Part shown: piece after piece, positions 1 to 37,158 of the stretch
Layout: each line of letters opens with the position of its first letter
How positions within the stretch are numbered: position 1 is the first letter of the stretch
Virus record (IMG/VR): IMGVR_UViG_2541047698_000018
Source: a virus
Lineage: Duplodnaviria > Heunggongvirae > Uroviricota > Caudoviricetes
Reading direction: 5' to 3' (one strand)
DNA: 42,267 nt
Position numbers and translations under genes: made by a program
The notes under the pieces: generated by a model
What the model was told of the DNA's origin: nothing
The model's database searches: none
What the model saw: the letters and a program-made list of their open reading frames with translations, nothing else

Positions 1-267
1 ATGCGCAGAAAAGAATCAAACGTTAGCAGTTTGCCGGAACTCACCAATTTTGAGGTAAGCTATTCCCTAGTTACCAATGAAGTTTACTTGTCTGCATCCT
101 TCACTGATAACATGGCCTGTATACCAAACTGGCCCTTACAAGAATTTCCGGATCAACTAATATGCATTTCTCGAGCAAAAGCTATTGCCCTAATCGAAGA
201 GCTCCAGAAAACCATCGACTATATGGACGCAGGAATCGATCGACAATCAGGTAGCCTGCTCCAGTAG
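1..267 (+). CDS. C-terminal fragment of hypothetical protein (5' end outside window)
   Basis: ORF open to window start (88 codons); AT-rich; no motif recognised. Confidence 0.3.
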   Translation: MRRKESNVSSLPELTNFEVSYSLVTNEVYLSASFTDNMACIPNWPLQEFPDQLICISRAKAIALIEELQKTIDYMDAGIDRQSGSLLQ

Positions 268-401
268 CTGGCGAGTTTTATACTCGTTCCCTGCAACAAT
301 GGGCTTTTGGTAAGGCACTCACAAATAAGGAATTCGTTAAGGTTTTTGTTCTGGAGACTCTGAAAGATACAAGGAATCAGTTGATGGCTGGTTTGATCAT
401 A

Positions 402-440
402 CTAATTAATATATTGTCAGACTCACAATATATTAATTAG
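402..440. repeat. Perfect 16-bp inverted repeat with 7-bp spacer; candidate operator upstream of cargo gene
   Basis: ctaattaatatattgt-cagactc-acaatatattaattag; arms are exact reverse complements. Confidence 0.5.
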
Positions 441-568
441 TGGTAGAACATAAAACCGAGTTCTTGACTTTCAATAGCTATTATATGCGATCAACAACCT
501 TAACCACCTTCTTATATTTTATGAGATACTCAAACAATTTAAATTTATGAGCAAAGGAAAATAATAAA

Positions 569-1414
569 GTGAATAAAAATCCCTGGGATATTCCAGCATG
601 GCACGCTCTGGGCCGAGAAGCATCTTTAGTTACACAGCTCATTGGTTCTGGGGCAACAGCCATAGGTAAAGCCAATTATGCAGACAAAATAGGTGAATAT
701 TACACAGCATTTTTTGGGCTTTCTGTAGGTTTTGAGAGACTTGCTAAACTAATACTTGTTGCACACTATGCCATTGAACACAAAGGGAAAATGCCTGACG
801 AGAATATTGTAAGAAAATTTGGACATAAGCTCATTGAATTAACCAACGAGGTTGATAGTATTTCTAAAAAAATGCAACTATCTCTGAGATATTCACGTCC
901 TACACATAAAATTACCTACAAAATACTTGAATGTTTAGATTCCTTTGCTGATGCCCGACGGGGACGTTACGCAAATTTCTCCTCATTAAGCAGCCCCAAT
1001 TTAACCGATAATGAACCTATTAATAAATGGTGGGGAGAAGTAGCCGAGAGTATCCTTGAAAAACATTATTATTATACAGTTGAACAAAGACGTGTTGAAG
1101 AAAATGCTAGGTTTATCAATGCCACTCTTTCACCGTATACAACGGTCATGTATATGAATGAAAGTACCAACATTATGCAAGACCTTATATCAGCCTCCAT
1201 CCGTACTGGACAAAATACCATTGTTCAAAAGTGGGGAAGATTCTATTCTCTTAGCATCGCTCGTTGGCTTGCCACAGTATTAGCAGAACTGTCTGATATA
1301 GCTTCTCATAAATATGGAATAATTAGTTTTTATGGCCTTAGTGAACATTGTTGCAGTTATATAGTTGAAGATAGTTTTTTAAAAAACAGAAAAATATGGC
1401 CACTTCGCCAATAG
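569..1414 (+). CDS. Hypothetical AT-rich cargo protein (281 aa)
   Basis: Intact ORF, GTG start with AAGGA Shine-Dalgarno upstream; AT-rich unlike neighbouring tail genes; sits where e14 carries mcrA next to pin. Confidence 0.5.
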   Translation: MNKNPWDIPAWHALGREASLVTQLIGSGATAIGKANYADKIGEYYTAFFGLSVGFERLAKLILVAHYAIEHKGKMPDENIVRKFGHKLIELTNEVDSISKKMQLSLRYSRPTHKITYKILECLDSFADARRGRYANFSSLSSPNLTDNEPINKWWGEVAESILEKHYYYTVEQRRVEENARFINATLSPYTTVMYMNESTNIMQDLISASIRTGQNTIVQKWGRFYSLSIARWLATVLAELSDIASHKYGIISFYGLSEHCCSYIVEDSFLKNRKIWPLRQ

Positions 1415-1418
1415 TTAA

Positions 1419-1733
1419 CTAGAAAATCTTCATAAGGGGGAGAAATCCCCCACCTGTAATAACATCACTACTAAAATTAACACCTTGTTCGCACAACTCC
1501 TCCACCAGCACGACAAGATGCCGCACACTGCGCCCCAGCCGATCCAGCTTCCAGACAACCAGAGTGTCACCTGCCGATAATGTCCTGAGCAGTTTTTTCA
1601 GTCCCGGCCTTTCGGACTTTGTACCGCTTATCTTGTCTTCAAAAATCAGCTCGCATCCTGCACAGTTCAACGCATTACGTTGTAGATCGGTATTCTGGTC
1701 ATTTGTTGATACGCGTACATAGCCAATAAGCAT
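1419..1733 (-). pseudogene. pin: DNA invertase (Pin/Gin/Hin serine recombinase), 3'-truncated
   Basis: MLIGYVRVSTNDQNTDLQRN...LVVWKLDRLGRS matches Pin/Gin N-terminus including catalytic Ser motif; similarity ends near residue 88, ORF stops at about 105 aa vs about 185 aa expected; C-terminal DNA-binding domain absent. Confidence 0.75.
1436..1451. other. GC hairpin (ggggga-gaaa-tccccc) at cargo/invertase junction
   Basis: 6-bp G/C stem with GAAA loop 22 nt after the cargo stop; coincides with the point where invertase homology is lost. Confidence 0.4.
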
Positions 1734-1789
1734 GGTAGATCTCCCTGACAAAAGCAGGAATGATGCCATTTGCTCGTTATTTCTGCATT

Positions 1790-1813
1790 TTCATAAACGT
1801 TGGTTTGGGAGAA
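1790..1813. repeat. gix/hix-like inversion site (left)
   Basis: ttcataaacgttggtttgggagaa; inverted copy at 3656-3680; encodes N-V-G-L-G-E in frame in the alternate fibre cassette. Confidence 0.6.
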
Positions 1814-2152
1814 GCGGCAAAAAGGAATGTGGGGACAGGGACGAATCAGATACCTGATATGGGTAGCTTCACGCTTTCTGTTTCAGGTACTGGATATCAA
1901 AAATTACCATCTGGTTTTATTCTTCAGTGGGGCTCAATCGGCGCATCAGGCATTGCACAGGATGTGGTAACCCATTTTCCGATTGCATTTCCAAACCGAT
2001 GTCTGCGTGTTTTGGTCTCACAAGACTACACACCAGATAGCGGGGCTGTTGGTTATATTGCCTGTGCAGGTTTTAGTCCCGACCCGGTTAAATTTATATC
2101 CAGAGCCAGTACTCCTGGCCTCGGCGCTTCATTTTTAGCGTTAGGCTGTTAA
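1790..2152 (+). CDS. Alternate tail-fibre C-terminal cassette (promoterless, inside invertible segment)
   Basis: Open frame from the gix-like site; ...[24 protein letters not shown]... parallels ...[11 protein letters not shown]... in the expressed fibre. Confidence 0.6.
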
Positions 2153-2173
2153 TTTAGCTATATGGAGTGAAAA

Positions 2174-2614
2174 ATGAATTACATATATTCCGCGACTACA
2201 AACTCTTTCTATCCGCTGGAGATGAAAGAGGATTACACTCAAGCTGACTCATGGCCAGATGATGCTGTTGAAGTTGATGAGCAAGTGTATATTGAGTTTT
2301 CCGGATTACCGCCGGAAGGAAAAATCCGTATCGCTGGAGAAAATGGTTTTCCTGCATGGTCTGAAATTCCACCACCAACACATGAGGAACAGATTGCTGC
2401 AGCCGAACTGGAAAAGCAGCAACTGATTAATCAGGCCAACGATTATATGAACAGTAAACAATGGCCTGGTAAAGCGGCTATTGGTCGTCTGAAAGGTGAG
2501 GAACTGGCGCAATATAATCTGTGGCTGGATTATCTGGACGCACTGGAGCTGGTCGATACTTCCAGTGCGCCAGATATTGAATGGCCTACGCCTCCGGCAG
2601 TTCAGGCCAGATGA
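2174..2614 (+). CDS. Tail fibre assembly protein (alternate copy)
   Basis: 146 aa directly after alternate fibre cassette; C-terminal ...LDYLDALELVDTSSAPDIEWPTPP shared with the minus-strand Tfa. Confidence 0.7.
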   Translation: MNYIYSATTNSFYPLEMKEDYTQADSWPDDAVEVDEQVYIEFSGLPPEGKIRIAGENGFPAWSEIPPPTHEEQIAAAELEKQQLINQANDYMNSKQWPGKAAIGRLKGEELAQYNLWLDYLDALELVDTSSAPDIEWPTPPAVQAR

Positions 2615-3188
2615 CATCCGGCGCGGTGCTGGTATCTGTTGCCGTCACCGCGTCAATGTAATCCAGCACAGCGTTAAGCCGGGTTGTTTCTGCCTGCGTC
2701 AGTTTCCGCCCGGCCTGTAATTTCAGCTGAATCAGACTAATGGAAGCCATTGCTGCATCAATCAGTGACTGGCGCTGTGCTTCTGCCGCTTCTACTGCGG
2801 CACCGTGTTGTGCCTCAGAATCTGTCACCCATTTCTCACCATCCCATTTATCATATGGCGTTAACGGGACGATAGTGGTTGTATTTTCAGGGTAATCACC
2901 CGGAGCTGTGATTTCTTTTGCTTCTCCTGTTTCGGTGCTATAGATAATTTCACCGCGATGGTCTGGCATATATTCCCATGAGTTTAAATCTACTGAACGG
3001 CAGATTGCATAACCAGCCTTATATGTGCCAGGAGCATCTAAACAGGAATATGCCGGGATACCGACACCAACGGCAAGATATTCATTTGAAGTGGAAATAT
3101 ATTCCCGTGTTTCACCATCATAGTTATAGACGGTAATATTCCCCGCCTTCGTGGCAATAAGTTCGCTATTTAATACGGCTTTATCCAT
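2586..3188 (-). CDS. Tail fibre assembly protein
   Basis: 200 aa immediately after fibre gene; C-terminal ...LDYIDAVTATDTSTAPDVIWPELP. Confidence 0.7.
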   Translation of the reverse strand: MDKAVLNSELIATKAGNITVYNYDGETREYISTSNEYLAVGVGIPAYSCLDAPGTYKAGYAICRSVDLNSWEYMPDHRGEIIYSTETGEAKEITAPGDYPENTTTIVPLTPYDKWDGEKWVTDSEAQHGAAVEAAEAQRQSLIDAAMASISLIQLKLQAGRKLTQAETTRLNAVLDYIDAVTATDTSTAPDVIWPELPEA

Positions 3189-4024
3189 TATGCAGCTCTC
3201 ACGATATAGTTAAATGCAATATTTCGTGGACGGGTTTCGCTCCCACCTGTGTTACCAATACTCCCTCGTGTATGTAGCGTTGGTGATGGAATCAGGGTTC
3301 CTCCGGCATCGGCAGCATCAAGCCCCCGGCCTTGCGTATATGCTCTTCTGAAGATTGTCGCCAGTTCCCATTCCTCTTTTGAATCATACCCATCGTTGGC
3401 AACAACAATATGGCGGTGTTTTTCCAGCATCCCAGTCTGAATGCTCAATAAAGCACGTCCTGCATCAATACCACGCCCGTCATCCCATCCACGAATAAAC
3501 TCACCACGGAGATCAGGTAGTTTCCCTGATGGATATGCTGTAGCAAGATGGGGATATTTCACCTTATCAAAGGCAGCGCCGTTGCATTTCAGCCAGCCCG
3601 TTGGCGGGGTTGCGGAGGGCCACGGAACAGGCACACCAACAGGTAATGCAGAGCCTTCTCCCAAACCAAGGTTTTTGAGAGCCGTTTTCACCGTGCCATC
3701 CGATTTGATATCACCAAACGGATTCTTGCGGCTCAGGTATTCAACAGCAAACCCCGATCCCAGCAATTCAACAAAACCGGGCAGATCACCATTATCAAGC
3801 ACATCCCGTTGCGTTTTATCACTTACAAACTGGGCCAGAGCTGCAGCAATAAAGCTGGCCTGCCGAATAACCTTATTGACTTGCGCACTGGAGGCTTTCC
3901 CTGCTGTAAATCCGGATAAAAGCGCGGGCAACGCTTCCCATTCCTCCTGCGATATAACATTGGCATTTCGATCCGTTGCAAACGCTTTAAAGTCATTTTT
4001 CGCCATCAGAGTAATACTCCCCAT
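3188..4024 (-). CDS. Tail fibre protein (currently expressed orientation)
   Basis: 278 aa; constant N-terminus, variable C-terminus beginning at the gix-like site; followed by Tfa. Confidence 0.75.
3656..3680. repeat. gix/hix-like inversion site (right), inside fibre gene
   Basis: ttctcccaaaccaaggtttttgaga is the near-exact reverse complement of 1790-1813. Confidence 0.6.
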
Positions 4025-36396: not shown

Positions 36397-37158
36397 ATGC
36401 AGGAACTAACTGAAATGCCGATCACCTATCCATACCCGAGAGAATCTTTTCCTGACTTTTTGAGGGAGTGTGGGTTCACCAATTTTTCCCACGAACAGCG
36501 TGAGACTTGTGACTGCTATCGTTTAACGAATGGCGTAATTGTTAACCTTTACACCACCCGGACCATTCAGTTTCAAGGTAACCCTCAAGAACGTCCCAAT
36601 GTTGAAACTGCAATAATGACCCATTTAGGAACGCCGCCCACGGCAACACCACTAGCCGTAGAACAGCCATCTGAGCTCCCCAAAAAGATATTCATTGTTC
36701 ACGGCCATGACCATACTGCAAAGGAGCAACTTGAGCTAATCCTTCATAAACTTGGATTACCAGACCATTTCATTTTGCAGAATACGGGAGGGACTGGACT
36801 CACCATTATTGAAGAGCTTGAACGTGAAATTGGGCAAGGACAAACTGCTACCCGTTTCGGGATTGTTCTTTTGACACCTGATGATATGGGATACTCAAAG
36901 CGCGCCGGTGAAGCAGAAATCCAACCCCGCGCAAGACAGAACGTTGTACTCGAGATGGGTATGCTTCTTTCGTCCTTAGGGCGCAGCAATGTAGCAATCC
37001 TTCAGAAACAGCACCTAGAACAGCCTTCTGATGCTAACGGGATTTTGTATCTGAATTTCAACGACCATGTACGTGAAACAGTTCCTCGTCTAGTGCAACG
37101 GTTACAAAATTCTGGTTTCGAATTTACACAAGCTCAAATAGCTAACGCTTCCTCGTAA
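36397..37158 (+). CDS. TIR-like (COG4271/PF10137-type) nucleotide-binding domain protein with unknown N-terminal domain
   Basis: 253 aa; KKIFIVHGHD, VLLTPDD, ARQNVVLEMGMLLSSLGR resemble the TIR-like family as recalled. Confidence 0.5.
   Translation: MQELTEMPITYPYPRESFPDFLRECGFTNFSHEQRETCDCYRLTNGVIVNLYTTRTIQFQGNPQERPNVETAIMTHLGTPPTATPLAVEQPSELPKKIFIVHGHDHTAKEQLELILHKLGLPDHFILQNTGGTGLTIIEELEREIGQGQTATRFGIVLLTPDDMGYSKRAGEAEIQPRARQNVVLEMGMLLSSLGRSNVAILQKQHLEQPSDANGILYLNFNDHVRETVPRLVQRLQNSGFEFTQAQIANASS

Follow-up and report, generated by a model that had tools for sequence, protein, structure and literature searches.

Does an invertible tail-fibre switch come to rest once its own recombinase has been destroyed? 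The question is raised by one end of a prophage contained in a 42,267-nucleotide stretch of viral DNA (Caudoviricetes; IMG/VR record IMGVR_UViG_2541047698_000018; this whole stretch is the window hereafter), where a segment with two alternative fibre C-termini lies beside the truncated remnant of a Pin-type serine invertase gene. An earlier note on this DNA had proposed that the truncation freezes the fibre in one orientation, unless another invertase of the Gin/Hin/Pin family acts in trans. We found that prophages with the same truncated allele exist in both orientations, the members of four near-identical pairs differing in that the segment is precisely inverted, which at the level of the population contradicts a frozen switch. 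In our view, the locus is probably a tail-fibre switch of the Pin/P-segment type whose own invertase is dead and whose segment is still flipped, occasionally and in trans, by invertases made elsewhere.

All features were called within the window, at whose left end the tail end of the prophage lies on the minus strand (Table 1). The segment between the two crossover sites spans 1.87 kb and encodes two alternative C-termini for the fibre, each of which is paired with an assembly chaperone of its own. The collar-type C-terminus now joined to the fibre gene is about 80% identical to e14 stfE at the nucleotide level, and its assembly gene (2586-3188) is 89% identical to e14 tfaE. When the stretch 1801-3668 was inverted in silico, the 118 constant fibre codons became joined in frame to the gp53-like C-terminus, producing a fibre of 235 aa. 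Both fibres are therefore open, with 278 aa as now and 235 aa after inversion, and both fusions are annotated in relatives; the 235-aa type, in which the constant part is followed by the gp53-like module, is the annotated fibre gene of E. coli BCE049. The constant part is identical in the window and in BCE049, whose segments face opposite ways. Together with the Pfam matches, the in-frame fusion bears out the proposal that a segment of about 1.9 kb holds a reversed alternate fibre C-terminus with its own assembly protein.

The ends of the segment are marked by the longest inverted repeat of the region, with arms at 1791-1814 and 3655-3678 (24 nt, 92% complementary). Within it, the 15-mer TTGGTTTGGGAGAAG occurs in exactly two copies in the window, at 1800-1814 on the plus strand and at 3655-3669 on the minus strand; shuffled sequences are expected to contain 0.05 matches, and two or more were seen in 0 of 100 shuffles. 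Inverted gix-like sites, previously placed at 1790-1813 and 3656-3680, are thus present to within a few bases. Extended to 26 bp, the two sites share the central dinucleotide AA and stand in inverted orientation, as expected of sites used by the Din family, whose enzymes cut at the central dinucleotide. Both also resemble hixL. The two sites match each other perfectly over only 15 bp (1800-1814), a stretch that includes the central dinucleotide. The proximal site and its counterpart beside pinE in the e14 P segment are the same over 29 nt, and at the distal site a single base departs from the e14 sequence. In agreement with this, the core TTGGTTTGGGAGAAG(G) equals both the repeat published as the inversion point of e14 (PMC12529663) and the K-12 sequence.

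The gene next to the proximal site is a remnant. Its open reading frame (ORF) on the minus strand (1419-1769) matched only the N-terminal Resolvase domain, over profile positions 2-97 of 145 in Pfam, and nucleotide homology to full-length pinE ends at window position 1467, which is codon 89; the thousands of full-length E. coli pinE genes all start matching at exactly this position. Up to there the remnant is well preserved, with about 97-98% nucleotide identity to K-12 pinE over the first ~240 nt and residues 1-69 all identical to K-12 PinE. The earlier description of an adjacent Pin-like invertase with about 88 homologous residues and no DNA-binding domain was therefore accurate. An intact invertase, the usual neighbour in Din systems, is missing here: helix E, which serves oligomerisation, and the DNA-binding domain are both gone, and the remnant is for this reason dead and unable to act in cis. 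RefSeq genomes carrying the same allele annotate it as a recombinase pseudogene of 267 bp with a "missing C-terminus". When the window was searched by tblastn with full-length PinE, neither a second invertase nor the lost half of pin was found, the remnant being the sole match. Judged from these alignments, the system is by descent a member of the Hin/Gin/Cin/Pin family, its enzyme part being a pseudogene.

Evidence that the segment has nevertheless moved comes from other genomes. The truncated allele, recognised by its specific junction, was present in 43 of 5426 complete E. coli genomes, a set that does not include the source genome of the window. A synthetic query representing the junction expected after inversion (cargo, pin remnant, collar-type C-terminus) matched BCE049 at 100% over all 1201 nt, whereas with the native junction as query the match to this genome stops at the crossover site. 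BCE049 and the window are 100% identical over 1-1814 and 99.9% identical over 3655-42267 (38.6 kb), and the stretch 1795-3678 is inverted between them. Only 4 mismatches fall in the inverted stretch; 3 are the fixed differences of the outer half-sites and 1 is a true single-nucleotide polymorphism.

Three further pairs of opposite orientation were found in addition to that of the window and BCE049, namely 22AR0747 and WP3-W18-ESBL-08, 97-3250 and O111:H11 8D, and C11 and C10. Their flanks are 100% identical or nearly so, assembly proteins of the same accessions have changed places, and the segment is inverted precisely, with breakpoints in a 20-bp overlap at the sites. All crossovers lie inside the identical 15-bp core that includes the central dinucleotide. 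Opposite orientations in near-identical prophages that share the truncated allele mean that the segment has inverted several times since the loss of the invertase. In the sequence type 38 (ST38)-like clade, whose genomes are all at ≥99.9% identity here, 18 have the segment one way round and 3 the opposite way, and the enterohaemorrhagic E. coli (EHEC) O26/O111 group is divided into 4 and 5 records, as judged from the annotation beside the remnant. Skewed counts of this kind suggest that flipping is infrequent.

For an enzyme supplied in trans to act here, the cis elements must have survived. Din-family invertases require a Fis-bound enhancer in cis, and a stretch that is predicted to be such a recombinational enhancer lies inside the pin remnant, at a distance of about 95 bp from the midpoint of the proximal site; it contains a CGTAATGCG (TAATG) stretch and differs by 3 nt (~1650-1712) from functional K-12 pinE. 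The two Fis sites of hin presumably span codons 8-13 and 24-30, and the ATTTA and TAATG spacer motifs described for hin fit the codons between them. By its place and its likeness to pinE and hin, the remnant would thus retain the enhancer region, with Fis binding predicted. In Salmonella, the Fis-bound enhancer is likewise located on the hin gene, ~100 bp from hixL (PMC3798978, PMC9368917).

Taken together, these elements suggest the following scheme. The 5′ part of the fibre gene, which stays outside the segment, would be joined by site recombination to either the collar-type or the gp53-like C-terminus, each of which would then be followed by its own assembly chaperone. Exchange of a cargo cassette that brought in a 281-aa gene cut pin after codon 89. 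What survives in cis are both crossover sites, near-identical to those of e14, and the putative Fis enhancer in the 5′ part of pin; with these elements all retained, the segment should still be a substrate for related invertases. As donors in trans we infer PinE of e14-like prophages and PinQ or PinR of Qin- and Rac-like prophages, possibly along with enzymes encoded by plasmids or superinfecting phages.

Such donors are common, and action across prophages has precedents. Among the 5426 genomes, 2989 carry pinQ-like genes and 2393 carry homologues of the pin 5′ part. Additional invertase loci on the chromosomes were counted by DNA search with chimeric queries. On this basis, BCE049 has 2 more chromosomal loci matching the 3′ half of pinE, C10 and C11 have one pinE-3′-like and one pinQ-like locus apiece, and a pinQ-like locus is present in 8 of the 9 EHEC records. 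In the ST38-like clade an extra invertase-like locus was detected in all 3 flipped genomes compared with 9 of the 18 unflipped ones, an association that is not significant (one-sided hypergeometric p ~0.17, hand calculation). PinQ is 39% identical to the pin family found here. The e14 P segment has been inverted experimentally both by PinE and by PinQ of prophage Qin (PMC12529663), and the latter is a direct precedent for action between prophages. Works cited in the reference lists of PMC12529663 and PMC4272514 include reports that e14 pin complements Mu gin and drives flagellar phase variation, and that a second invertase contributes to phase variation in Salmonella. The suggestion that another enzyme of the family acts in trans is therefore favoured by the evidence as regards the allele; for the source strain itself, flipping would depend on its other invertases, none of which is visible in the 42 kb.

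This last point is one of several that weigh against occasional flipping in trans, some of which also favour a switch that is truly locked. Under that alternative, the source strain would have no compatible invertase, or not enough of it, and would always make the collar-type fibre, the other orientations being rare past events elsewhere. The invertase in cis is certainly dead, and the window holds no other. In 9 ST38-like genomes and in O111:H11 8D, chromosomal DNA search revealed no second C-terminal region of an invertase, and both orientations were observed between genomes and not within one culture. The orientation shared by 18 of the 21 ST38-like genomes points to flipping that is rare or conditional and not free-running, as does the seemingly fixed orientation within EHEC subgroups. 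The enhancer is assigned from position and likeness to pinE and hin. Finally, a K-12 strain deleted for pinE keeps its e14 P segment locked at native levels of the chromosomally encoded PinQ and PinR (PMC12529663); this deletion probably also removes the enhancer. Against a locked switch stand at least four independent flips among just 43 genomes, with almost no other sequence change, the abundance of compatible invertase genes in E. coli, and intact sites that match those of e14. We therefore regard a true lock as unlikely, though it is the most serious of the competing explanations.

Two further accounts would do away with an invertase, or with the inversions altogether. Homologous exchange in the 15-bp core would give the same products as site-specific exchange, and fibre-cassette mosaicism among carriers of the allele indicates that recombination is active at the locus; the flips might hence reflect RecA-dependent or illegitimate recombination at the short repeats, or repeated transfer of the truncated allele into differently oriented prophages. 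To our knowledge, 15 bp of perfect identity is too short for efficient RecA-dependent recombination, a point in favour of a site-specific enzyme acting in trans, and the four events show zero or near-zero divergence of the flanks. Allele transfer would need an identical twin with intact pin in the other orientation, four times over. We give this explanation very little weight. Hardly any is left for an assembly artefact in which a repeat-flanked segment was mis-assembled: short-read assemblies can mis-orient invertible segments, but all records are complete-level genomes, the repeats of 15-24 bp are far below read length, the flipped form is shared by three independent genomes at 100% identity, and the coding fusions are intact both ways round. 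Occasional inversion by invertases of other prophages thus accounts best for these observations.

Table 1. Features of the invertible fibre segment and the adjoining prophage end (window coordinates).
Feature	Position	Strand	Details
Cargo cassette at prophage end	283-1466	+	Took the place of the pin 3′ half and an earlier cargo gene
Cargo ORF	569-1414	+	281 aa; uncharacterised family; HEPN-like predicted fold
pinE-type serine invertase remnant	1467-1733	-	Codons 1-89, catalytic domain only; open frame 1419-1769, 116 aa
Predicted Fis-dependent recombinational enhancer	1650-1712		Inside pin remnant, codons 8-28; from position and similarity to pinE/hin
Proximal 26-bp crossover site (invertase side)	1788-1813		Core TT/AA at 1800-1801; reverse complement TTCTCCCAAACC AA CGTTTATGAAAA
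Silent alternative fibre C-terminus, gp53-like_C	1814-2152	+	Pfam PF21882, E 2.4e-15; no start or promoter at present
Tail-fibre assembly protein of silent C-terminus	2174-2614	+	146 aa; Pfam Caudo_TAP, E 1.9e-38; phrog_188
Tail-fibre assembly protein (TfaE-like) of current C-terminus	2586-3188	-	200 aa; Pfam Caudo_TAP, E 5.2e-32
Current variable fibre C-terminus, StfE-like collar domain	3188-3668	-	Pfam Collar, E 2.5e-14
Distal 26-bp crossover site	3656-3681		Core AA at 3668-3669; TTCTCCCAAACC AA GGTTTTTGAGAG; within fibre gene, encodes NLGLGE
Constant N-terminal part of tail-fibre gene	3669-4024	-	Outside segment; part of ORF 3188-4024

How pin lost its 3′ half is indicated by a prophage of enterotoxigenic E. 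coli (ETEC), ETEC-2264, which occupies the same chromosomal site and has an intact 184-aa pinE plus a different gene of 648 bp. Window positions 1-282 and 1467 onward align to this prophage and 283-1466 do not; as only this stretch differs and no other invertase fragment is present, we concluded that a cargo cassette was replaced and ruled out that an insertion sequence (IS) had interrupted the gene. The 281-aa cargo protein, in which residues R82-x3-H86 are conserved, gave no match by Foldseek against the PDB, nor by profile searches against PDB sequences and Pfam.

Several observations bear on the origin of the junction. Codons 81-89 of pin (1467-1492), just before the breakpoint, show ~7 mismatches in 26 nt relative to both K-12 and ETEC pinE, and recombination with a more divergent piece of an invertase gene, brought along by the cassette, may have produced the junction. 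The first part of the cassette (283-~400) is similar to the ynfT/ydfK region that lies upstream of pinQ in prophages of the Qin type, and in strains PAR and O55:H7 CB9615 this piece is joined to pinQ, as seen in a match to a chimeric query. This resemblance to Qin-type ends hints that prophages with different invertases have exchanged the cassette at their ends. In E. coli CAU16175 (L013, NZ_CP047378.1) the locus is rearranged: IS421 separates the cargo gene from the pin remnant, IS3 interrupts the DUF2612 gene, and a larger inversion brings the constant part of the fibre beside the cargo gene. The records of phages vB_EcoM-611R5, 606R2 and 683R1 contain the same truncated allele but also host genes, and the one paper found to mention any of these phages says nothing about inversion.

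A more far-reaching interpretation, to which we give little credence, is that the switch has come under foreign control. The invertase would have been destroyed by a HEPN-like defence cargo, and flipping would depend on the invertases of other prophages, some of which (PinQ and PinR) are induced by phage attack; separately, the cargo could be an abortive-infection protein of a new, single-gene type, and the advantage it confers could account for the spread of the allele. If so, fibre orientation, and any adsorption-blocking by-product like StfE2 of e14, would become a host-controlled and infection-responsive trait.

As for the remainder of the window, the prophage is Mu-tail-like and apparently complete, and is inserted between yfhH and yfhL. 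On the minus strand its left end encodes, in order, a spike protein, a sheath initiator, baseplate J and a DUF2612 wedge protein, followed by the 278-aa tail-fibre gene (3188-4024). An ORF of 88 aa at 1-267 on the plus strand (phrog_17793, function unassigned) is kept beside the variable cargo slot in prophages with truncated and with intact pin alike. In the early region, a 253-aa TIR-domain protein (36397-37158, plus strand) matches the PADLOC candidate defence family PDC-S35 (E 7e-109), and its counterpart in BCE049 is annotated as "TIR domain-containing protein".

The closest known system is the e14 P segment of K-12 with its invertase PinE. The two share the same layout, in which the constant part of the fibre is followed by a segment with two C-termini and two tfa genes, by the invertase and then by cargo, and they also share an identical proximal site, a distal site with one mismatch and a tfaE/stfE-like cassette that is 80-89% identical. 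The cargo downstream of pinE in e14 is mcrA, whereas here it is the 281-aa gene. Moreover, e14 is a decayed prophage at icd with a StfP-like second C-terminus, whereas the element described here is, by annotation, complete, measures 40 kb, sits at yfhH/yfhL and has a gp53-like second C-terminus; and PinE is functional in e14, whereas the invertase here is cut after codon 89. The G segment of Mu with Gin and the C segment of P1 with Cin are Fis-enhancer-dependent serine-invertase switches of host range, in which fibre C-termini are exchanged with their own chaperones (PMC12529663). Ours is a switch of the same kind, but the invertase is intact in those phages, and fibre modules and invertase lineage differ. 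The cases of Din enzymes acting in trans (PinQ on e14, e14 pin in place of Mu gin, and the second invertase of Salmonella) resemble the present one in that a segment is flipped by an enzyme encoded elsewhere. They were shown experimentally, whereas here the case for action in trans is a comparative-genomic one, and the enzyme at the locus was destroyed in nature, not by laboratory mutation.

A switch that lost its own invertase in nature and yet continues to be flipped in trans would be a small addition to the laboratory complementation of decades ago; we regard it as ordinary and largely understood biology, and the current understanding of Din-family inversion systems is unchanged by it. The locus is also an example of how cargo exchange at a prophage end can damage the adjoining phage genes. 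It is relevant wherever host range is predicted from prophage annotation, or the activity of an invertible element is deduced from the presence of a local recombinase: a truncated invertase beside an invertible segment is not the same as a dead switch, and co-resident prophages can flip such a segment if its sites survive together with the 5′ portion of the invertase gene, where the enhancer lies.

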